DNA from: Trypanosoma brucei
Taxonomy: Eukaryota
DNA length: 64,000 nt
Direction of reading: 5' to 3'
NCBI GenBank assembly: GCA_000002445.1
Contig: CH464491.1
Coordinates: forward strand, 448,001 to 512,000
Positions 1 through 14,826 of the stretch are shown here, piece by piece. A model generated the notes under the pieces. The model ran no database searches, had not been told where the DNA came from, and was given only the letters and a program-made list of their open reading frames with translations. Positions within the stretch are counted from its first letter, which is position 1. Each line of letters opens with the position of its first letter. The translations under genes were made by a program, and so were the position numbers.

Positions 1-3000
1 AATGGAAATTTGTATTTTAGTTGTAAGAGTAATGATTATTATATTGCGCTCATTCATGTTACAACTATACCAAATGGACATCTTGTTATTTTGTACTTCA
101 TTCTAACTTTATAACGACATACTCTCACACACATATATTGAATAAATTATTTTGATTATCATTTACTGACAGAAATAACAAAGAAACTTTATTATAAATT
201 ATATCAGAGCGGCATCTTGAGCACCAAGTTATTACAAGGGAAATTATTTTACAACACATTACGTTTCTTGTAAATCTTTTTTTTATACTTGATACAGACA
301 GACATATATTCTCAAGCAGTTCAACGAAATTACACTGCTTCATTAAAATATTTTAACTTATTGTATTTGTTTTGTAATAACATAATTTATCCTATTACAT
401 TTCCTTTCGGAGCTATTTGAACTAACCGTTTATGAAGATGTCATACATTCTGAAGCCTCTTGTACACAAGAATGAAGTGGCGCTGTTCCAATAGAAAATC
501 TTACTTCCCTATCTGGCCTTTGTTTTGTAACGTAACGTTGGCTTGTAATATTTTATGCCCCAAGATGTAACGAACCGAGAAGAAATTTCGTTTGTTTTAC
601 AGACGCCTCCAAATAACCGCAACTGTATGTTTGTTATTTTCTGGATTGTTGAGTCGTCCCCTGCTCTTTTTGCAACATTGAAACCCATTACTTTTCTTCA
701 CTAGTGCGGAATATATTCTATGTTGATGTTTTGTTGTTACTTGGTGATATTTGCGTACCCTACTACTGTAAGATAGCGAAGTAGAAGAACTACATTTCTA
801 AGGGTCGGAGGTTTCTGTTCCTACAGAAGTAAAAGAGTGTTGTGTTTCAAGGGATGCGTGCGCGGTGTGGCAATGTTGTTGAGCAGCGATACTGTCTTGA
901 ACCCATGAAACCAAAAGGTGGAGAATATTTGGCCCCTCAAGGGTAATTATCATAGCATTCCGTGTGTTATTTTTTATAATGGAACTGAAGTGAGCCAGGT
1001 GGGTTTTTTAAATCTTCATACATGAACAGTGGTGTCAATTACCTCCTAGTGCATGCATGATACCGTCTTTCATATATGGATATTGAACCTACCAAACACC
1101 CAATGAATACGACCTTACGCCGTGCGTCACTTGTCTTCAATATTTTGAATGTTGTGTTCACTTAACTTTTCTCACCCTCAATAGTGTTGGAGGTGTGGAT
1201 AAGACTCAGAAAACGCGATACAGTTACGCTACAGAACAATGAAGTAGAGGGTAACGTGCTGATGGCAAAATTTTTACTTTCAATGCCTTTGCGGCCGGCG
1301 TCCTTTCCTCCTCGGTGAAACTCACGATTTTCCTTTCAACATCCCTGCGTTAGATGCATGGCACGCGAAAACATAACCATACCCACATGCAACCGTGTGC
1401 ATTAGGAGTGTGCATAACCGGGATGTTGGGAAAGAGCCCCCGATGCGACGCCGTATCATTTATGACTATGCCGGTGGTCGAAAACAGGGAACTTCCTCGT
1501 TCTCATTGGGCCCACCCATTCATAAGGTCTGGCGGTCGGGGATGGCCTTAATGCGACAGGTACACGTACGGCGACGCTGGAGACGGCTGCATTGTCAACG
1601 GGTAAGCCAAGTTCCTCTATGCGTCCTAATCTTTAGAGTTTTTGGCAGTCGGTTGGTTGAGAGCTCCTGTTTTGAAGAAAAGTAGCCATACCATCTGTTC
1701 TCTGAAGTGCTAAGGGTATCGCGTTTTCTTCCCGAACTCGAAGACGCACTACTTTGGGGATATATAGACTGGCTGTCATTCAGTGCGGATGTTGAGCACA
1801 ACCAAGGGTCCAAATTTTCACAGATGTTAATGAGGTGCCGGGGATCTTTCCCAGTCGAAAAGGCTCGAAATGATCGAGCATTCATGTGACTTCGAAGTCG
1901 ACTTCCACCTTCCGTAAACACAACCACGTACCGGAGTGGGCGAACACATACATTTCATGACGCCCTCGTGTTGGAATAGTATGGTTTCCCATAGGAGAAT
2001 GAACGTCCATACAGATCAGGAATAACAATGGTGCAATACAAAGTCAAAATCCTGTGGTGACCCCTCGGAGTATCAGTCACGTTTTCGCTTACAAAGAAGG
2101 TGCAAACTACGCTCGTGTGTATGCGGTCCCTGGGCCTATTCGCAGCAGTTATGTGTTGCAATCTCACTGCGGGGTCCAATGCGTATTTTAAAGGGCCAAT
2201 TAGAAAAACTTATACGTGGACTTACACAACTAATCCTTTGTCAGTTGATCCAGGTAAACTTTATCAGCAACAGGGTCATGCGGCTGTTCTTTATGGAATG
2301 TAATGGTGGGAAATAGGGGTGAGACCGTGAGGATATTTCGAAACTGCAAATCGTTAGTGAAACAGAAGGGAAAGGGAAAACATTACAGAATAAACTGGTA
2401 AGAACTGATACTCTAAATAAAGGTTGAGAGGGATCTCGCAGAACTGAGTGCAGTTTTGAGCGGTGATTGACAAAAGGCTGTCTCATTAGTTGATTGAGGA
2501 AGAAACTTACGTACCTGGTCCAGTGTGTCGCTTCCTTCTCTTCACTCTAACGGCAACATTGCATTAACTGAATTCTGCAGCTGTTGAGGGGGATGGGCAC
2601 GCAAAAGTACCTTATGTGTTTGGAGGCGCGGGCAAAACCAGGAAAAAGTAGTTCTCGTCACCCTGGTGAGTTTCACCCTCTTCCGTGCAGGTTTGTCTTT
2701 TAGCGTTTTCGGTACCGTTTTCAACATTGCTGTTGGCGCTGCTTCCACGCGGCAACTGCATCCCAATATTCAGATGTCCCTTTAATCCTGTATTTTTCCA
2801 TGTTGCCGATGATTATCGTTTCTGTGCCCGATGAAGCGTCTAAACTCACCAGTTCATTTGTTGAAACTTTTCACTCCTTCTTATTGAATATCCCTATTTT
2901 TTGCGGCGTATGAGAGCCCTCCCCCATTCGTCTTTTGCGTTTGCTTTTATACCCACCCACGGAAAGCAAATTTATTTTCTCCTCGGAATCAACATCCAAG

Positions 3001-4736
3001 GAGCTTTAAGTGTGGAGTGCACCCTGATTTTCGCCTTCGGAGCACCAGACCTCCACTGTATTCAGCCATTCAGGTATTGGATGACTTCTAGGATATTGCC
3101 GGTTTATTATGTCTGAAAAGCATCCTTTTTGGCACTTGACGTGAGGCGGTATTCCACAGCCCACTTTTTTGGTCTTTTCAAACAAATATCAGTCGTGCTT
3201 ATTTGAGCATATCTTGTTTGTTTGCGTGCGACGAAATCTCAGCAATCGTGTATGCCGACTGAGCTTCCTTGCTTTTCGCTTTCTCCCCGCTTGAAATGGA
3301 AACGGAGAACCGTAGAAATAATACCATAGTCCATCTTTGCTTAGATGGGTCGAGAGTGGAAAGCTGTCGGTGTTTCTTGGGAGTTTTGCTCAGGTGATAG
3401 CACAACTCTTGGCTTTATGAATCTTGTCGTCGCTGCCGCCGCCATTTGCCACACATAGATTGGTACCCCTTCGGTTGCCACAATGCGGCGCCAAACAGAT
3501 TTGGCGTATTGGCATCGCTCACCATTTTTCCACGACTCGTGAAAGCGCATGGCTCTCGAGTGCTCGGTCCAAGTGATTTGTACTCCACCTCCGCCGGCAC
3601 TTCCGTAAAGTGTCCCGTTTATCGCTCGGTCACAAATTACAGAACCTGCTATAACTTACCTCTAAATTCTCCTCGTCCGAATTGAGTCACTGTGAGTTCC
3701 ATTTCGTAACTGAATAAACTGTGCGCGAGTCCAGGGATCACGTTCAGTTCTTTGCCCGGTCGTCCCATCATTATGAGCCCGGACCCGACACAGACGTATG
3801 AGGAACAGTGCATGTCGACTCTACACTCCCCGATAAAGTGTTGTTTACTCCGTTTTGTTTTTGAGGGGGCTGTGAGAAGAACTGCCAAGCCCATACCCAT
3901 TGCCAAGTAATGTACAAAACTCATCGATCCCCATTTTCATACCACGGTTAAGAGAAGCGTCGCAAAGAGTGAGTTTTTGAAACGCCCACCGAACCCAACC
4001 GTCACCGCCTCCGCGCGGGAGGCAGGTTAAGGGCACTTCCACCACCTTCTTTACCGCCAGTAAATTAACTTCCATACAATTGAGGACTCGCACACTACAG
4101 AAATCCCCCTCCCAAGCAATTTTAACGGCCGGCGTTGTAGGCACAACAAAGGTTAAAATATTACTCCTCCTGCTCGTTTTCTCTTCATTCAACACAAAAA
4201 AGGCAATGTATGGACTGTTCTGCCCGTTTTTTTTTTTTTGAGAGAGAGGGATAGTGAGGCTTCTGCAGCGGTAAAATTGCGAGTCAAGTGTTACCACGCT
4301 GTGGGAGGACACGACGTATAATGAAGGAAACTTTTTTTTTGCTTGCGGGCGGTTTAAAGGGATATGCGTTTAAACCATTATATCTTGAGTGGGTGGCGCC
4401 CGAAAAAGATCGCGAAGCAGGCATGAAGCTTGCGAAACTTCTTGGGGCTCAAAGGACCAACGACACGGTGAACTTGACAAAATTTGAGGGATGTAGAAGC
4501 TACATGTTGAGGAGAGCACAATGCATTAGCACGGTTCCCTAGGGCACTGGCTTTATGGAAACGGTGGTAAGATACCCGCTGGGGAGGCGAGCCAAACGTG
4601 CATTCATTTGGTGTATGGACTGCTAATAAACAAATGTAACAGGCGGAAGTCGGAGTTGTCGCACGCGGTGAGGCACCCCGTTGAGACGGAAGTATGGACC
4701 GAAACAACCCTCACATATAAAATGAAGCGTTCGCGT

Positions 4737-4751
4737 CACCCCCCCCCCCCC
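4737..4751. repeat. Homopolymer C15 tract. A (TG)9 tract follows at about 4829-4846.
   Basis: Seen in the sequence. Both are low-complexity tracts in the gene-free left region. Confidence 0.9.
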
Positions 4752-5660
4752 AGCGGCAGACATTGGCATATATGCGTTCGCGCTTGCACTTCATGTCAAT
4801 TTCGCCACTGAAAGGAGCACTCCATCCTGCGTGTGTGTGTGTGTGTGCTTGCCTGTGCATCTTTTTTCGAACGCCGTTGTTTTTATGTACGAAACGGAGG
4901 GCGGGGAGGGAGGGGAATCCCAGGTGGAAGTTATATTTCATGGCAGGGGAATATTGCTGACAGAATACTGTTACCAGTGCCCCGGCTGGTGGGGTTCGCC
5001 AACACGAAAGGACAATAGTGAAAAAAAATAAGGACTGGGGGAATAAAAATTTACAGAAGTTACACAGTTAAAAACACCATGAGCAATCGACGATTTCCAG
5101 ACCCTCTAGCACCACGATTCGGAGGTATTATTACACATTCCAGAATTTGTAGAGGTTCAAATTCAAGTTCCACGGTTCCAGTAATCCATCAGCCCTCACA
5201 AAACGTGTAAAGAAGCGCCAAGTTACTTCATGAGTCTCATCCGACCCATCTCATTCACGCTTTTCAAATACATACACTACAAAAAATCTACTCCCTCCGG
5301 TCTCCACAGGACGCACAAATTTGTCAGCGTGAACCCTGGTCCATGACGTAGAAAGTGTCTTGCGCCACCCGAAATACGTGGCTGAAGGATTTCGCGGGAC
5401 GGATACAAACCCCGCTGGGTAAAAGTGTGTGGGAGTTATCGTGCCTTCCGGGACCTATCTCCACAGCACATGTTTTCACCTCAGGGCAAAACGCATGTGG
5501 CCGCCTCATGCGAAATGGCATATCGGGAACACACCGCACACAGCACATCGGATACTAGCACCTACTCGACTACAAACAAGTAGAAAACGCACATGCATAG
5601 TACATTACGCCCCAGCAACGGGGGTCCTCCCCATTGATGGACGTGATGCGTGCCGAAGAA

Positions 5661-5728
5661 CGTGGACTGTAATTTTACCCGAGGTGTAAGCGCGATGAAT
5701 CACACCTCGGGTAAAATTACAGTCCACG
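5661..5728. repeat. Perfect 27-bp inverted repeat: arms 5661-5687 and 5702-5728 with a 14-nt loop. It forms a potential long hairpin about 100 bp downstream of the last minus-strand gene.
   Basis: Read directly: cgtggactgtaattttacccgaggtgt ... acacctcgggtaaaattacagtccacg, which are exact reverse complements. Confidence 0.9.
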
Positions 5729-5822
5729 AGCCTCGTCCACACGACCGGATGGGCAACTGCGTTGGAAACTACTTATGAAACAGAGTTAATAGTTTCTTTT
5801 GTTTAGAGGCGGGGGTCACACG

Positions 5823-6995
5823 CTATTTTCTCAGTGGTCGAATAAGCCATCTAGGGTCTGAAATGTCCGAGAGAGGGCACACACCACTAAGTTTCATATA
5901 CCGGCGTGCGCCCCACACAGTGTGGACTTCTACAGAGCTATTCTCCAATAGACGTCTGTAGGCATTTTTCTGTTGGAAGGAAGAATCTCGAAGGGCTCTA
6001 AACCAACTTGTTTGGTTGAGATATTTGGGCATCAGGTTCCTCCACGCACTAATTGAGGTTGGGAAGTGCAAAACCACGCCACTTTCGACCGAAACACTGT
6101 GGGGATAATGAAAAAAACGCGTCTCGTAATCGAGGGATATAATTCCCCTTCGCAGCAGTAATTTTGGCTTCACATGCTTCGGCCTACTGACGCTCCATGT
6201 CAACACTATAGTCCACATAGTTTGATCACATAGCCAAATAAGGCTCTGGCGTCTCAAATTAAAGAAAACTTTCAAAGCCTCTTTTAGCGCCCACACTCTG
6301 GCTATCACGCCTCCGCCATTAAGATACGACCTTCCCGATTCATTTACCCTTAAAATATTTTCAACTCCCACACCCCTTGTTGCATCCATTGCGTCATCAA
6401 ACAACTTCTTACAGTTTTGAAACTCCGACCTCCCCTCCGGCTTCACCATGATATTCAGCTGAGGAGTAGCGCAACCCTTCTCAGCGGTAAACAACATTGG
6501 AGGTGTCATTTCTCCTCTTAAAATAGCCGTCTCGTTGAACGCTTCAGGGATTTTTGGTGTAGTGTCGAGGAAATGCTTCACTGCCTCCTCCCTAACACCT
6601 GCATCGGTGAAATAGGTATCTCCCCCATCGAACAACATAATCACATCACTTTCGCGCATCTTCTCACGCACCATGTAACTATAAATCCAGTCCCACCTCT
6701 TCACATGCCCATACCAGCCTCCCATGCCCAGTGTCGCAACCGATGCATTAGTGAGTATAGAACTTACAATCATCCTGCACCACCCCGGAGAGTACCTCGT
6801 GTGCACCACAGCATAATACACCCTCGGCGTATAATTTCTACCACTGTCTTTCTTTCTTAACAACGTCCCTGTTTCCTTGTTCCTCACGCTCATTTCTCCC
6901 AAAAACCAGAGCACAGTTAGCAGCATCACCCCCACCATCGCGGCATATAGTCTTCCCCTTGTGCCCCCATAAATTGCCCTAGCCCCTTTCAACAT
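5823..6995 (-). CDS. Type-II membrane protein, tandem paralog 1 of 2, with a DGGDT (DxD-like) motif. Possibly a Golgi glycosyltransferase-like protein. The ORF could extend to 7010 if the first ATG is used.
   Basis: ORF of 395 aa with an N-terminal hydrophobic anchor (VMLLTVLWFL). It is about 75% identical to the adjacent paralog and shares the motifs WCRMIVSSILTN, GMGGWYGHV, FDGGDT and KHFLDTTPKIPEAFNETAILRGEMTPPML. The glycosyltransferase assignment is inference only. Confidence 0.6.
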   Translation of the reverse strand: MLKGARAIYGGTRGRLYAAMVGVMLLTVLWFLGEMSVRNKETGTLLRKKDSGRNYTPRVYYAVVHTRYSPGWCRMIVSSILTNASVATLGMGGWYGHVKRWDWIYSYMVREKMRESDVIMLFDGGDTYFTDAGVREEAVKHFLDTTPKIPEAFNETAILRGEMTPPMLFTAEKGCATPQLNIMVKPEGRSEFQNCKKLFDDAMDATRGVGVENILRVNESGRSYLNGGGVIARVWALKEALKVFFNLRRQSLIWLCDQTMWTIVLTWSVSRPKHVKPKLLLRRGIISLDYETRFFHYPHSVSVESGVVLHFPTSISAWRNLMPKYLNQTSWFRALRDSSFQQKNAYRRLLENSSVEVHTVWGARRYMKLSGVCPLSDISDPRWLIRPLRK

Positions 6996-7128
6996 ATAAA
7001 AACTTCGCAAAAAAAAAATGGATTTACTTGGAGAAGGGTGATGCTTTTCCCCTCAACTCGGACACAGTGCGGATGCGTTTTTTTTTTTTTTAACTCTGGC
7101 GAACGGTTCGTAAAAATTCCGTGCGATG

Positions 7129-8292
7129 TTACTTTTTCAACTGCCCACTGAGCCAACTGGGGTCGGAGATGTTAGATATGGGGCATACGGTACTTAACTT
7201 AGCGTCTTTGCGGGAACCCCAGAAAGTGTACATCTCCACAGTGGAATTTTTCAGCAAACGAATGGAGGCCTCCCGCTTGGGGGAAGAATTGCTCAGTGCT
7301 CTATACCAATTTATCTCACTCAGATACTGTGGCAATGTACGCTTCCACACGTGAACTGGTCCCGCAAAATGCAGTATCATTCCACTCATAACCATCGTCT
7401 TGGATGGATAAAGGAAGTAACGCGTCTCATAGTCAAGAGATATTAGCCCCCTTCTCACCAACAGCGCTGGCTTTATATTCTCCGGCCTGGTGATACTCCA
7501 TATTAGCAAGAGTGCCCACATTGACTGGTCGCAACCCCAAACAAACTTTTTTTTTCTGAGGTTAAAGAATGCCTTCAGAGCCTCTTCTAGTGCCCACACC
7601 CTGGCAATTATTCCTCCCCCGTTGAGATACGATCTTCCCGATTCATTCGCCCTTAAAATAGAACGCAACCCTGTGCGATTGGAAACTACGAACGCCTCGT
7701 TGTACAGTTTACTGCACTGATGAGCGCGCTCGCTCTTAGGTGTCTTTACCATGAAATGACTTTGAGGGGTGAAACAGAAATTTTCGGCGGCCATCAACAT
7801 TGGAGGTGTCATTTCCCCTCTTAAAATAGCCGTCTCGTTAAACGCTTCAGGGATTTTTGGTGTAGTGTCGAGGAAATGCTTCACTGCCTCCTCCCTTACA
7901 TCCTCCCCTGTGAAGACCGTATCGCCCCCATCAAATATCACAATCACGTCACCCTCACTCATCTTCTTCTGCCGTAGGTACCGGTACAACCACAACCACC
8001 TGCTCACATGCCCATACCAGCCTCCCATGCCCACTGTGGCAACGCTCACATTAGTGAGTATCGAACTTACAATCATCCTGCACCACCCCGGCGCGTACCT
8101 CGTTTCTGCAACAAGAAAAAACACCCTTGGTATGTGATTACCGTAACTTCCATCCTTCTTCCCCTCCACGCTAGTTTCCCCACTCCCTACATTTCTTAAC
8201 CCCAACCACCAAAAAAATAACATCAGCACCAACCCCATAACATACAACCTGCCCCTTGAATCCCCATAGAATTCCCTAACACCTTTCAGCAT
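7129..8292 (-). CDS. Type-II membrane protein, tandem paralog 2 of 2. Same family as 5823-6995.
   Basis: ORF of 387 aa with a signal-anchor (LVLMLFFWWLG), colinear with paralog 1. Central blocks are near-identical at nucleotide level, for example 6490-6590 versus 7800-7900. Confidence 0.6.
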   Translation of the reverse strand: MLKGVREFYGDSRGRLYVMGLVLMLFFWWLGLRNVGSGETSVEGKKDGSYGNHIPRVFFLVAETRYAPGWCRMIVSSILTNVSVATVGMGGWYGHVSRWLWLYRYLRQKKMSEGDVIVIFDGGDTVFTGEDVREEAVKHFLDTTPKIPEAFNETAILRGEMTPPMLMAAENFCFTPQSHFMVKTPKSERAHQCSKLYNEAFVVSNRTGLRSILRANESGRSYLNGGGIIARVWALEEALKAFFNLRKKKFVWGCDQSMWALLLIWSITRPENIKPALLVRRGLISLDYETRYFLYPSKTMVMSGMILHFAGPVHVWKRTLPQYLSEINWYRALSNSSPKREASIRLLKNSTVEMYTFWGSRKDAKLSTVCPISNISDPSWLSGQLKK

Positions 8293-9611
8293 ACAAACAG
8301 ATGTCTCTAAGAAATAAAAGGGTACGCACCCAGTGAGTGGACAACTACACGTTAAATCAAGGGAAACGAATAGTTAATGTTAAACATTAGTTTCCCAACA
8401 GTTAAGGCATGTAAATCCGGCACACCACAACACCAAAAACACATAAATATGTGCAACACCGATTATCTCGGGATGCTGATGCTCCCACTCGCCTACATAT
8501 GAAGGCAGTGGGTCTCAATGCATACCTCGTTAAATGTGAACCCAACGATAACGATATTCTGTGGGACAGATTCAAATAGATGAGACAACAGAGTAGTGTG
8601 CAGGCATTCAATACGTACAACAGTCAGACCTGTTGAGTTTGATTTAGTATTCAATAAGCGCGCTCATAAAGTAAGGCATATTGACCTTCACGTACACATA
8701 ATCGTTGTTTCCATCACACTGCCGCGTCTGTTGTGCATTCCCCCCATTTTCTTATCCACCTTCCCACCCAGATACCACAAACAAACCGCATGATCTCTCT
8801 TACACTTTCGAGCCAATACCGTCACCGAAAGTATACTGACAGGCAGCCAGACAGGGTAAGATTTGGTTCTAATGACATAATGCTGCGTAGAGCAAAGGTA
8901 GTGGGGGGGGGGAAAAAAAAGGATGTGGAGAGGGATGGAGGAAGGAAGGGAACGAGCTGCATAGCAGGCCATTGCTCAGCCGAAAGGTGATTTTTGATGT
9001 TCCGTTATCAATGCATCGCTCAAACTGTTTGGACCTCGAACAACAATTATGCATCACAGCATCAGTGGCCAAAAAGAAAACTAGTAGCACACATATACAC
9101 ACACACGAACATAAACATAAACATAAACATAAACAGGGATGAATGACCTATGAGGAAGAGGGTGGATAAAAACAAAATAATAAGGATGGATGATACTCGA
9201 TTCAGTGTGAGCTGAGTTAAAAATTATGTCTTCAAAATGGCTCTACTGCCGTCAGGCTGACAGGAAACTATTGACTGTCATCATTAGAGGGGAAGATAAT
9301 GCATTTGAGTGCCAAAACTACAAATGGCTCTCGCGCAACAGGACAGGGGCCACATCCCCACGGCATTAAATGGTTGCCACTGGCCCAAGGGATGCTGCGC
9401 TGTATTGTTTCAACAGCACATAAGCAAAAACACATAAATATGTGCAACACCGATTATCTCGGGATGCTGATGCTCCCACTCGCCTACATATGAAGGCAGT
9501 GGGTCTCAATGCATACCTCGTTAAATGTGAACCCAACGATAACGATATTCTGTGGGACAGATTCAAGTAGATGAGACAACAGAGTAGTGTGCAGGCATTC
9601 GATACGTACAA

Positions 9612-9712
9612 CAGTCAGACCTGTTGAGTTTGATTTAGTATTCAATAAGCGCGCTCATAAAGTAAGGCATATTGACCTTCACGTACACATAATCGTTGTT
9701 TCCATCACACTG
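9612..9712 (-). ncRNA. Candidate C/D-box snoRNA, candidate 1 of the repeat unit. Coordinates are for copy 2. It recurs at the same offset in each copy.
   Basis: Minus-strand reading: CAGU-GUGAUGG (C-box-like) ... about 90 nt ... GGUCUGA (D box) - ACUG. The flanking 4-bp CAGU/ACUG inverted segments could form the terminal stem. No covariance search was run. Confidence 0.3.
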
Positions 9713-9956
9713 CCGCGTCTGTTGTGCATTCCCCCCATTTTCTTATCCACCTTCCCACCCAGATACCACAAACAAACCGCACGATCTCTCTTACACTTTC
9801 GAGCCAATACCGTCACCGAAAGTATACTGACAGACAGCCAGACAGGGTAAGATTTGGTTCTAATGACATAATGCTGCGTAGAGCAAAGGTAGTGGGGGGG
9901 GGAAAAAAAAGGATGTGGAGAGGGATGGAGGAAGGAAGGGAACGAGCTGCATAGCA

Positions 9957-10060
9957 GGCCATTGCTCAGCCGAAAGGTGATTTTTGATGTTCCGTTATCA
10001 ATGCATCGCTCAAACTGTTTGGACCTCGAACAACAATTATGCATCACAGCATCAGTGGCC
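9957..10060 (-). ncRNA. Candidate C/D-box snoRNA, candidate 2. Coordinates are for copy 2.
   Basis: Minus-strand reading: GGCCA-CUGAUGCUGUGAUGCA ... GGCUGAGCAAUGGCC. GGCCA and UGGCC are a perfect 5-bp terminal stem. UGAUGC and GUGAUGC are C-box-like, with CUGA near the 3' end. Length is about 104 nt. Confidence 0.3.
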
Positions 10061-10193
10061 AAAAAGAAAACTAGTAGCACACATATACACACACACGAAC
10101 ATAAACATAAACATAAACAGGGATGAATGACCTATGAGGAAGAGGGTGGATAAAAACAAAATAATAAGGATGGATGATACTCGATTCAGTGTG

Positions 10194-10270
10194 AGCTGAG
10201 TTAAAAATTATGTCTTCAAAATGGCTCTACTGCCGTCAGGCTGACAGGAAACTATTGACTGTCATCATTA
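10194..10270 (-). ncRNA. Candidate C/D-box snoRNA, candidate 3. This is the most canonical of the three. Coordinates are for copy 2.
   Basis: Minus-strand reading: UAAUGAUGAC (exact C box AUGAUGA) ... CCUGUCAGCCUGACGG (CUGA, the D' box) ... UUUGAAGACA (C'-like UGAAGA) ... CACACUGAAU (D box CUGA). It is about 85 nt long, with box spacing typical of C/D snoRNAs. Confidence 0.4.
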
Positions 10271-13200
10271 GAGGGGAAGATAATGCATTTGAGTGCCAAA
10301 ACTACAAATGGCTCTCGCGCAACAGGACAGGGGCCACATCCCCACGGCATTAAATGGTTGCCACTGGCCCAAGGGATGCTGCGCTGTATTGTTTCAACAG
10401 CACATAAGCAAAAACACATAAATATGTGCAACACCGATTATCTCGGGATGCTGATGCTCCCACTCGCCTACATATGAAGGCAGTGGGTCTCAATGCATAC
10501 CTCGTTAAATGTGAACCCAACGATAACGATATTCTGTGGGACAGATTCAAATAGATGAGACAACAGAGTAGTGTGCAGGCATTCGATACGTACAACAGTC
10601 AGACCTGTTGAGTTTGATTTAGTATTCAATAAGCGCGCTCATAAAGTAAGGCATATTGACCTTCACGTACACATAATCGTTGTTTCCATCACACTGCCGC
10701 GTCTGTTGTGCATTCCCCCCATTTTCTTATCCACCTTCCCACCCAGATACCACAAACAAACCGCATGATCTCTCTTACACTTTCGAGCCAATACCGTCAC
10801 CGAAAGTATACTGACAGGCAGCCAGACAGGGTAAGATTTGGTTCTAATGACATAATGCTGCGTAGAGCAAAGGTAGTGGGGGGGGGGGAAAAAAAAGGAT
10901 GTGGAGAGGGATGGAGGAAGGAAGGGAACGAGCTGCATAGCAGGCCATTGCTCAGCCGAAAGGTGATTTTTGATGTTCCGTTATCAATGCATCGCTCAAA
11001 CTGTTTGGACCTCGAACAACAATTATGCATCACAGCATCAGTGGCCAAAAAGAAAACTAGTAGCACACATATACACACACACGAACATAAACATAAACAT
11101 AAACACGGGATGAATGACCTATGAGGAAGAGGGTGGATAAAAACAAAATAATAAGGATGGATGATACTCGATTCAGTGTGAGCTGAGTTAAAAATTATGT
11201 CTTCAAAATGGCTCTACTGCCGTCAGGCTGACAGGAAACTATTGACTGTCATCATTAGAGGGGAAGATAATGCATTTGAGTGCCAAAACTACAAATGGCT
11301 CTCGCGCAACAGGACAGGGGCCACATCCCCACGGCATTAAATGGTTGCCACTGGCCCAAGGGATGCTGCGCTGTATTGTTTCAACAGCACATAAGCAAAA
11401 ACACATAAATATGTGCAACACCGATTATCTCGGGATGCTGATGCTCCCACTCGCCTACATATGAAGGCAGTGGGTCTCAATGCATACCTCGTTAAATGTG
11501 AACCCAACGATAACGATATTCTGTGGGACAGATTCAAATAGATGAGACAACAGAGTAGTGTGCAGGCATTCAATACGTACAACAGTCAGACCTGTTGAGT
11601 TTGATTTAGTATTCAATAAGCGCGCTCATAAAGTAAGGCATATTGACCTTCACGTACACATAATCGTTGTTTCCATCACACTGCCGCGTCTGTTGTGCAT
11701 TCCCCCCATTTTCTTATCCACCTTCCCACCCAGATACCACAAACAAACCGCATGATCTCTCTTACACTTTCGAGCCAATACCGTCACCGAAAGTATACTG
11801 ACAGGCAGCTAGACAGGGTAAGATTTGGTTCTAATGACATAATGCTGCGTAGAGCAAAGGTAGTGGGGGGGGAAAAAAAAGGATGTGGAGAGGGATGGAG
11901 GGAGGAAGGGAACGAGCTGCATAGCAGGCCATTGCTCAGCCGAAAGGTGATTTTTGATGTTCCGTTATCAATGCATCGCTCAAACTGTTTGGACCTCGAA
12001 CAACAATTATGCATCACAGCATCAGTGGCCAAAAAGAAAACTAGTAGCACACATATACACACACACGAACATAAACATAAACATAAACATAAACAGGGAT
12101 GAATGACCTATGAGGAAGAGGGTGGATAAAAACAAAATAATAAGGATGGATGATACTCGATTCAGTGTGAGCTGAGTTAAAAATTATGTCTTCAAAATGG
12201 CTCTACTGCCGTCAGGCTGACAGGAAACTATTGACTGTCATCATTAGAGGGGAAGATAATGCATTTGAGTGCCAAAACTACAAATGGCTCTCGCGCAACA
12301 GGACAGGGGCCACATCCCCACGGCATTAAATGGTTGCCACTGGCCCAAGGGATGCTGCGCTGTATTGTTTCAACAGCACATAAGCAAAAACACATAAATA
12401 TGTGCAACACCGATTATCTCGGGATGCTGATGCTCCCACTCGCCTACATATGAAGGCAGTGGGTCTCAATGCATACCTCGTTAAATGTGAACCCAACGAT
12501 AACGATATTCTGTGGGACAGATTCAAATAGATGAGACAACAGAGTAGTGTGCAGGCATTCAATACGTACAACAGTCAGACCTGTTGAGTTTGATTTAGTA
12601 TTCAATAAGCGCGCTCATAAAGTAAGGCATATTGACCTTCACGTACACATAATCGTTGTTTCCATCACACTGCCGCGTCTGTTGTGCATTCCCCCCATTT
12701 TCTTATCCACCTTCCCACCCAGATACCACAAACAAACCGCACGATCTCTCTTACACTTTCGAGCCAATACCGTCACCGAAAGTATACTGACAGGCAGCTA
12801 GACAGGGTAAGATTTGGTTCTAATGACATAATGCTGCGTAGAGCAAAGGTAGTGGGGGGGGAAAAAAAAGGATGTGGAGAGGGATGGAGGAAGGAAGGGA
12901 ACGAGCTGCATAGCAGGCCATTGCTCAGCCGAAAGGTGATTTTTGATGTTCCGTTATCAATGCATCGCTCAAACTGTTTGGACCTCGAACAACAATTATG
13001 CATCACAGCATCAGTGGCCAAAAAGAAAACTAGTAGCACACATATACACACACACGAACATAAACATAAACATAAACATAAACAGGGATGAATGACCTAT
13101 GAGGAAGAGGGTGGATAAAAACAAAATAATAAGGATGGATGATACTCGATTCAGTGTGAGCTGAGTTAAAAATTATGTCTTCAAAATGGCTCTACTGCCG

Positions 13201-14826
13201 TCAGGCTGACAGGAAACTATTGACTGTCATCATTAGAGGGGAAGATAATGCATTTGAGTGCCAAAACTACAAATGGCTCTCGCGCAACAGGACAGGGGCC
13301 ACATCCCCACGGCATTAAATGGTTGCCACTGGCCCAAGGGATGCTGCGCTGTATTGTTTCAACAGCACATAAGCAAAAACACATAAATATGTGCAACACC
13401 GATTATCTCGGGATGCTGATGCTCCCATTCGCCTACATATGAAGGCAGTGGGTCTCAATGCATACCTCGTTAAATGTGAACCCAACGATAACGATATTCT
13501 GTGGGACAGATTCAAATAGATGAGACAACAGAGTAGTGTGCAGGCATTCAATACGTACAACAGTCAGACCTGTTGAGTTTGATTTAGTATTCAATAAGCG
13601 CGCTCTTTTTTTTTGGGAGAGGGTTACTTCTATTTGCTATATTATTTTTCTTGAACTGCAATGCCTTGCGTGAAGAAAATTATGAGGTGAAAAAAAAAGG
13701 TGTCAAGTTTTTGCTGTTATGGAATTGGTTTTTTTAATGCTTACTTGCTAAACTTTTTTTTTTTGGAGCAGAAGTGTTTACACATTTTCTTTTTTTCAAC
13801 TCATCATCCTGTCTTCCATTTTGTTATGTAACTGATCTTTATACAAATAAGAATGGATATTTGCAATGGAGAACGTATCGGTAGGATGGATGTGAGTTCT
13901 GACCCTTTATTCTGTGATCAGTTGTGGGATTTGCAATATATCTCTCGTGCGTTTTTTTAGAAAAAATATACCAAAGGATGAACAACTTAATGGTAAACGT
14001 TGGATCTTTTCTGCCGAATTTTTTCTTTCTTTTCTTCCATAACTTTTTTTTCTTGGAAGGTGGTTCTTTTCTTAACTTCTACCAAAGCATCGCCGCGTTA
14101 TGCAGTGCAAAGAGGCGAGTTTTTTTTATGTCGATCGAACCACCCTTTAAAAACAAGCAAAACCACGGATACGTAAACGTGTTAATGAGGTTGAGTGATA
14201 GCTTTTGTGACCAATCACCTCACGTGTGGTAACGGTAAGTAAAACAAAACGATGTAAAATGCGGCAAGGCAACAACGCATATGCGCAGTCACTTATATAC
14301 GAACAAATAACGAAATGACATATATATAATGGCAATTCATAAAAAGTGAGAGTAACCATGCCTTTGCAGTTGTGGAATCGTTGTTTTCCCTATTTCATCG
14401 ATTCCCTTGGTGGTTTGCCTTCATATGAAGCTGTGTCGGGCGCTTTCGACATACCCATCAATGCAACAATTCAAACTTGCACTCAGTCACTTTTTCCTTT
14501 TCCCCGTATCGGCGTGAGCTCTACGCTATTTCTCCTCCACTCTGTAGATATTGAGACGCTTGAACGATAACGTATATGAAATGCCCAGCAGTTGCAACCG
14601 CAAGCTTACACATGGATCACTGGACCTTTCCCATGCATAAAGCTAAATGCCATCTCCGAGGCAAGGCAAGAGAGTCGTGAAATACATGATCAAACGAAAA
14701 AATACGAAATGAGGCGACAAACGGCGGACTTCGCTCCGCCCAATAACTCAAATAAATAACACGCACCATATCCTGATTGCTTTACATAACATCCATCTCG
14801 CCACCCCTCGTCAGAACAAACAATTC

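Follow-up and report, generated by a model that had tools for sequence, protein, structure and literature searches.

ESAG3 of the bloodstream expression site (BES) of Trypanosoma brucei is an Mn2+-dependent O-glucosyltransferase with a glycosyltransferase A (GT-A) fold that glucosylates VSG3, and it occurs as a soluble homo-octadecamer in the lumen of the endoplasmic reticulum (bioRxiv 10.64898/2026.01.27.701950). About 50 intact chromosome-internal ESAG3-related (GRESAG3) genes are proposed to extend the O-linked glucose, their activities being untested (bioRxiv 10.64898/2026.01.27.701950). Genes arranged in tandem in T. brucei exchange sequence with each other, and partial gene conversion was found in 21 of 47 tandem arrays (Jackson 2007, PMC1855330). 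For example, the chromosome 10 GRESAG3 array Tb105a (Tb10.6k15.0910) has four copies, three of them evolving in concert, and contains a 109-bp conversion tract inside the coding sequence (CDS) that is ectopic, 1.17 Mb away (PMC1855330). The locus considered here is a tandem pair of genes, called A and B, at 5823-8292 of a 64,000-nucleotide stretch (the window) of T. brucei brucei TREU927 chromosome 11 (contig CH464491.1, positions 448,001 to 512,000). A first-pass annotation, made from the DNA letters alone, had left the family of the pair unassigned, but both genes carry an ESAG-related annotation ("ESAG protein, putative").

The explanation favored here, with a probability of roughly 85%, is that A and B are old GRESAG3 tandem duplicates encoding GT-A enzymes, that gene conversion has patched them, and that one of the converted tracts served an unequal crossover in T. 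b. gambiense. In this model, A and B began as ancient tandem duplicates whose untranslated regions (UTRs) can no longer be aligned. Afterwards, two or more interlocus gene conversions, short non-reciprocal exchanges of ~100 nt each, would have replaced patches in their 5' halves. Tract 1 would be a recent exchange (98% identity) and tract 2 an older one (89%), separated by an interval with saturated synonymous divergence. Later, tract 1 would have supplied the homology for an unequal crossover in the lineage of T. b. gambiense DAL972, with loss of 1303 bp and formation of a hybrid gene that has the 5' part of B and the 3' part of A.

The two open reading frames (ORFs) are adjacent, lie on the minus strand, as do all features of the pair given below, and exactly fill 5823-8292. 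The description of the locus as a tandem paralog pair was therefore correct. Gene B (7129-8292) is the upstream copy and encodes a GRESAG3 paralog of 387 aa that is 100% identical to the TREU927 protein P0001. Gene A (5823-6995) is the downstream copy and encodes a GRESAG3 paralog of 390 aa (P0002) from an ATG at 6995; the TTG at 7010 listed by the ORF tool is an artefact of the bacterial code. In BLASTP, the two proteins show 58% identity and 75% positives, and it is the latter value that had been taken for their identity. The gene-wide proportion of synonymous differences (pS) is 0.63, and the Nei-Gojobori estimates of synonymous (dS) and nonsynonymous (dN) divergence are ~1.4, which is saturated, and 0.31, with a dN/dS of ~0.2. 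The saturated dS together with the dN indicates that A and B are old duplicates under purifying selection. The similarity of the pair at the DNA level is confined to the CDS, as none was found between the UTRs and flanks of the two copies.

Nucleotide identity between A and B is 66% overall in a codon alignment but clearly uneven, as is the pS profile, in agreement with the mosaic noticed earlier. Two tracts of high identity lie at a constant offset of 1303 nt in the two genes. Tract 1 occupies 6492-6593 in A (codons ~135-168, VREEAVKHFLDTTPKIPEAFNETAILRGEMTPPML) and 7795-7896 in B, and has 2 mismatches in 102 nt (98.0%) with a longest exact run of 56 nt. Tract 2, the presumably older one, occupies 6700-6800 in A (TRY.PGWCRMIVSSILTN..VAT.GMGGWYGHV) and 8003-8103 in B, where it was placed by pS and by alignment to the copy in A. 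It has 11 mismatches in 101 nt (89.1%) and exact runs of 30 and 29 nt. In other words, the identity of tract 2 is elevated, and of the two blocks that had been called near-identical, only the first deserves the name. Divergence between the proteins peaks in the stem that follows the anchor (codons 20-50), at codons 175-205, and at codons 300-320. The C-termini, which the first-pass annotation had counted among the most divergent parts, do not belong here, being 55-65% identical at their extreme ends. Likewise, the peptide DIGTYFTDAGV that had been quoted as an example of divergence is a misreading of DGGDTYFTDAGV.

What keeps the tracts alike? In windows of 30 codons, pS between A and B drops, with values of 0.10 over tract 1 and 0.19-0.21 over tract 2; between the tracts it is 0.5-0.76. 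The drop is specific to this pair. In the same windows, pS stays at 0.5-0.9 when A or B is compared with a paralog from T. b. gambiense chromosome 10 (P0005) or from T. equiperdum (P0006), and the DNA identity of the chromosome 10 copies in the tracts is 68-70% (tract 1) and 71-77% (tract 2). Codon usage at identical residues points in the same direction: the same codon is used at 31 of 35 such residues in tract 1 and at 24 of 27 in tract 2, compared with 65 of 145 elsewhere (Fisher p = 1.3e-6 and 1.3e-5, respectively). Furthermore, in our own GENECONV-style permutation, run on 838 polymorphic sites of a five-paralog alignment, none of 5000 shuffles matched the A-B fragment (p <= 2e-4, or ~2e-3 when corrected for 10 pairs). 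Because the drop at synonymous sites is specific to A and B and beyond chance, it argues for gene conversion rather than protein constraint.

A mosaic could in principle arise with no recombination, from uneven purifying selection that preserves catalytic segments between freely changing loops. Protein identity in the pair does vary with structure, and tract 2 lies on the part of the protein that is best conserved in the family (PGWCRM...GMGGWYGH). However, the effect reaches synonymous sites and does so only between A and B, with Fisher probabilities of the order of 1e-6 and 1e-5. Tract 1 is not specially conserved either, as its protein identity is 94% between A and B but 47-72% to other paralogs. 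A segment around NGGG/ARVWAL serves as a control: its proportion of nonsynonymous differences (pN) is 0.08, making it as constrained as any in the protein, yet its pS is 0.52-0.68. Amino-acid constraint thus does not explain the identity of the tracts, and uneven selection as the whole cause is very improbable and largely refuted. The relationships of the remaining parts of the proteins also differ from those of the tracts. Outside the tracts, A and B are not mutual closest relatives by per-segment protein identity; in residues 251-300, for example, A is nearer to P0004 (a chromosome 10 paralog), P0005, and P0006 (70-72%) than to B (58%).

Another way to conserve synonymous sites without recombination is an element that acts at the nucleotide level inside the CDS, such as a structured RNA, a site for an RNA-binding protein, or a target of a small RNA, and the genes do adjoin a cluster of small nucleolar RNA (snoRNA) genes. 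Folding of the tracts showed no excess structure (z-scores of +0.1 to +1.35), and there was no Rfam match inside the genes; a structured RNA was rejected as an account of the tracts on these two results. The chromosome 10 paralogs do not keep the nucleotides, and the junction of the T. b. gambiense hybrid described below marks the tract as a substrate of recombination. A nucleotide-level element is therefore hardly credible as the cause. Gene conversion between A and B is the best explanation of the tracts, and the process itself is one that we infer from the sequences.

Another possible source of the shared segments is ectopic conversion, in which A and B would each have received the same stretch from a third GRESAG3 paralog at another place in the genome. 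The 109-bp ectopic tract reported for the chromosome 10 array (PMC1855330) offers a precedent, and the 3' part of A could be read in this way. In the 3' third of A (5900-6200), at codons 280-320, pS to P0006 (L003 4001-5308) is 0.48-0.59, compared with 0.83-0.94 for B, with an uncorrected permutation p of 0.023; this similarity could be due to an old ectopic exchange or only to noise. Against a third donor, none of the four other paralog DNAs examined comes near the tracts (68-77% identity), and exchange between neighbors is far commoner than ectopic exchange in T. brucei arrays (PMC1855330). A third donor is thus quite improbable. We conclude that short conversion events probably took place between the old duplicates on at least two occasions, at different times. 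The earlier suggestion of partial conversion is supported by the pair-specific drop in pS and the permutation. The description of the conversion as ongoing is not, since tract 1 has already diverged by 2%.

The locus of a related subspecies adds a second kind of exchange. A comparison of copy number at the orthologous locus had been recommended, and it proved informative because T. b. gambiense DAL972 has a single hybrid copy there. In its chromosome 11 locus (L001, from FN554974.1), one gene at L001 10001-11170 takes the place of A and B. L001 is collinear with the window at 98-99% identity and aligns to window positions 19295-7795 and then to 6827-1. Apart from A and B themselves, the protein database has no close relative of the pair other than the product of this gene (P0003, 279 aa). 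At all sites that differ between A and B, the gene carries first B-type sites and then, after a single switch, A-type sites. Its bounds are B 7816 / A 6513 on one side and B 7794 / A 6491 on the other, which puts it within the final 21 nt of tract 1 (7795-7815 in B, the 3' end of the tract). The hybrid reads as the footprint of an unequal crossover (non-allelic homologous recombination, NAHR) in which 1303 bp would have been deleted, and the position of its junction implies that tract 1 also served as the crossover site. Tract 1 itself probably predates the split between T. b. brucei and T. b. gambiense.

A CGA to TGA change at codon 280 of the hybrid lies upstream of the codon for the catalytic His, which accounts for its very probable status as a pseudogene; the gene is annotated as 279 aa. 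One or both GRESAG3 genes thus appear to have been lost specifically in T. b. gambiense, through unequal crossover. No proteins of T. equiperdum or T. evansi clustered with A or B (cluster sizes of 1). The T. equiperdum OVI contig (L004, CZPT02001596.1) stops 3.8 kb past the XRN-domain gene, where the snoRNA repeats begin or slightly short of them, and so does not reach the GRESAG3 locus.

What kind of proteins do A and B encode? Both are chromosome-internal ESAG3-related genes of a glycosyltransferase family. The reference used for BES ESAG3, the 368-aa protein P0015, agrees with the preprint at 13 of 13 residue numbers. In BLASTP against P0015, B has an E value of 8e-65 with 31% identity and A has an E value of 8e-64; the homology of the two proteins to ESAG3 covers ~320-350 residues at 29-31% identity (E ~1e-64). 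ESAG3 itself lies in a telomeric bloodstream VSG expression site, where it is transcribed together with the VSG. In contrast, A and B lie in a housekeeping polycistron in the core of chromosome 11, beside a snoRNA cluster, and they are therefore GRESAG3 genes rather than ESAG3 proper. An exhaustive profile search of 1.84 billion representatives recovered 75 proteins at E <= 1e-3, a small family that includes P0015. Other routes found less: a word-indexed protein search retrieved just 7-9 relatives, BES ESAG3 not among them, and the sequences of A and B gave no match to Protein Data Bank (PDB) chains in a set lacking the chain from the cryo-electron microscopy structure of ESAG3. The Pfam scan of the translated proteins that had been proposed as a check likewise returned no match above threshold, DUF7672 and PUA_4 appearing only as noise.

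The alignment to ESAG3 allows the likely catalytic residues to be located. The DGGD codons of B (7921-7932, D121-D124) encode the DXXD Mn2+-binding motif of the GT-A fold and align to ESAG3 D110/D113, and those of A (6618-6629, D123-D126) align to the DGSD of ESAG3. In aligned members of the family, the motif reads DGGD, DGAD, or DGSD. The shared DGGDT motif noted in the first pass, which is FDGGDT in both proteins, is thus the DXXD metal site. A and B also have conserved equivalents of ESAG3 G215/G216, E244/Q245, H297, Y82, and H84. The equivalents of the first three are the NGGG loop, a D-Q pair, and the His of ILHF, all of them invariant in the alignment, and the acidic residue of the D-Q pair is Asp, as in LH3. 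In other words, A and B keep the DXXD motif, the Gly loop, the acidic-Gln pair, the C-terminal His, and the Y82/H84 equivalents of ESAG3.

One essential residue of ESAG3 is replaced. W242 lines the uridine diphosphate (UDP) pocket of ESAG3, and its W242A mutant is inactive (bioRxiv 10.64898/2026.01.27.701950). The equivalent is Gly253 in B (WGCDQ, 7534-7536), Leu in A (WLCDQ, ~6230-6240), and Arg in P0004. Most other trypanosome homologs have Trp at this position (WWCDQ), which is variable across the wider family. In this sub-clade, the presence of Gly, Leu, or Arg may mean that the donor pocket is altered or the activity lowered. A and B differ from ESAG3 in the octadecamer interface as well: H54 is replaced by Arg, and W345 is not conserved.

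The predicted structure of B agrees with the assignment to the GT-A fold. An AlphaFold2 model of B had a predicted local distance difference test (pLDDT) score of 68 and a predicted template modeling (pTM) score of 0.71. When this model was searched against the PDB with Foldseek, the glycosyltransferase domain of LH3/PLOD3 filled ranks 1-7 (E = 1e-6 to 6e-6); mimivirus R699 and further GT-A enzymes came next. LH3/PLOD3 is also the nearest structural neighbor reported for ESAG3 (bioRxiv 10.64898/2026.01.27.701950). Human LH3/PLOD3 (PDB 6FXR/6TE3) and R699 share with the model of B a Rossmann-like GT-A fold and a DXXD site for Mn2+ and the UDP-sugar. However, their sequence identity to B is only 14-19%, and LH3 is a multidomain enzyme that modifies collagen. 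The homology to ESAG3, together with the LH3/PLOD3 domain as the top structural match, supports the earlier idea of a nucleotide-sugar transferase-like protein. The enzymatic activity, donor sugar, and acceptor of A and B are inferred.

The N-termini of A and B differ from that of ESAG3, which has a cleavable signal peptide and is soluble. Each of the two proteins has a charged head of 16 residues followed by one hydrophobic segment, as well as several N-glycosylation sequons. The segment in B, a putative signal anchor, is encoded at 8194-8244 (residues ~17-33), with a Kyte-Doolittle 19-residue maximum of 1.67 at residue 14 and an AlphaFold helix at 12-33. The segment in A is encoded at 6891-6944 (residues ~18-35), and its 19-residue maximum is 1.87 at residue 19. 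A charged head and a single hydrophobic segment in place of a signal peptide make a type-II topology plausible, and the anchor and sequons are consistent with a lumenal catalytic domain. Taken together, A and B would be secretory-pathway proteins of ~390 aa in which a short cytosolic N-terminus and a single anchor precede a lumenal GT-A domain. That domain would comprise a DXXD (DGGD) site for Mn2+ and the UDP-sugar, the NGGG loop, a W-x-C-D-Q acidic-polar pair, and the C-terminal His.

Several points weigh against the favored explanation or some part of it. The paralog DNA compared consists of five sequences, and the ~50 GRESAG3 genes could include a third-party donor. There is no outgroup ortholog of either copy that would set the direction and timing of the conversion. 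Tract 2 coincides with the most conserved protein segment, and its identity is partly a matter of constraint, though its synonymous sites are unusually similar too. The hybrid rests on one assembly of T. b. gambiense DAL972, a draft Sanger assembly that was ordered against TREU927 (PMC2854126) and could contain a mis-join, although one spanning a 102-nt repeat with 34% divergence around it seems unlikely. As for function, the structural model is of only moderate confidence (pLDDT 68), and with Gly or Leu at the W242 position, the activity of A and B may differ from that of ESAG3 or be reduced.

The pair can be set beside described cases of exchange between tandem genes. Tb105a belongs to the same family, is likewise a head-to-tail tandem array with short spacers, and likewise has a short conversion tract in the CDS. 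The A/B pair is far more divergent, however (66% nucleotide identity), and the exchange in it appears to have occurred between the neighbors themselves. The array of at least three full GRESAG3 copies and a C-terminal fragment (5544-5879) seen at 4163-8464 of a T. b. gambiense chromosome 10 sequence (L002), beside an ISG65/75 gene, corresponds to Jackson's Tb105a. The T. b. gambiense hybrid resembles haemoglobin Lepore and the opsin hybrids, in which a single crossover in an identical segment of tandem paralogs deletes the interval and leaves a 5'/3' fusion. In contrast to those cases, the homology here is ~100 nt and seems itself to have been made by earlier conversion, and the product, with its stop at codon 280, is very probably a pseudogene. 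The A/B pair is absent from the array list of PMC1855330 (text and supplements) and from the T. b. gambiense genome paper. The tracts and the hybrid therefore appear to be undescribed, but only as further examples of known processes, in a family that is already annotated. Both the family and the mechanism were already known, and conversion is well documented in tandem genes of T. brucei.

The surroundings of the pair are those of a trypanosomatid-style polycistron. All 25 gene-like ORFs of at least 200 aa in the window are on the minus strand, and A and B lie downstream of an XRN-domain gene, an acyl-CoA dehydrogenase gene, and the TB11Cs4 snoRNA cluster. Between the stop codon of B and the ATG of A is a spacer of 133 nt (6996-7128) with a run of 13 A and a run of 10 T. 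From general trypanosome biology, this spacer would be expected to contain the poly(A) site of B and the polypyrimidine tract and AG trans-splice acceptor of A. It offers very little room for a 3' UTR of B and a 5' UTR of A; the spacers of the chromosome 10 array (L002) are likewise short, ~70-120 nt. Directly upstream of B is a minus-strand tandem array at 8422-13661 with a period of ~987 bp and five to six copies, which is the TB11Cs4 H/ACA snoRNA cluster (Rfam RF01539, RF01540, and RF01541) and corroborates that the locus comes from chromosome 11. Each unit contains TB11Cs4H1, H2, and H3, with 16 Rfam matches above the gathering score in all, and the last snoRNA ends ~170 nt before the ATG of B. 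In the corresponding array of T. b. gambiense DAL972 (L001 5697-9859), the number of units is lower by about one.

On the other side of the pair, no ORF longer than 155 aa was found at 1-5800 of the window (~5.8 kb downstream of A), and the GC skew of minus-strand coding DNA vanishes in 1-5822. In T. b. gambiense, the next gene past the locus encodes a leucine-rich repeat (LRR) protein of 1399 aa on the opposite strand. Based on these three observations, the polycistron appears to end with gene A, and this end would be a convergent strand-switch (termination) region. No further GRESAG3 copies or pseudogene fragments were found in the window.

The main value of these results lies in annotation, as the "unassigned" family of the pair is ESAG3/GRESAG3. 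O-glucosylation by ESAG3 alters antibody epitopes on the trypanosome coat (bioRxiv 10.64898/2026.01.27.701950). The pair is of use to those choosing GRESAG3 candidates for biochemistry or comparing the repertoires of subspecies, as the catalytic core is kept, the Trp essential in ESAG3 is replaced, and the DAL972 hybrid is very probably a pseudogene. One more idea, an improbable one, is that the ~100-nt tracts just downstream of the DXXD motif are preferred exchange points, at which GRESAG3 genes reassort their N-terminal modules (stem and donor site) and their C-terminal ones (acceptor side), with the B/A hybrid of T. b. gambiense as one example. If so, the enzymes proposed to extend the O-linked glucose on VSGs would be diversified or pruned by such exchanges, and subspecies would differ in the glycoforms of their surface coat. 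In that case, the loss of Trp in the clade of A, B, and P0004 would point to a donor or gating specificity that has changed.

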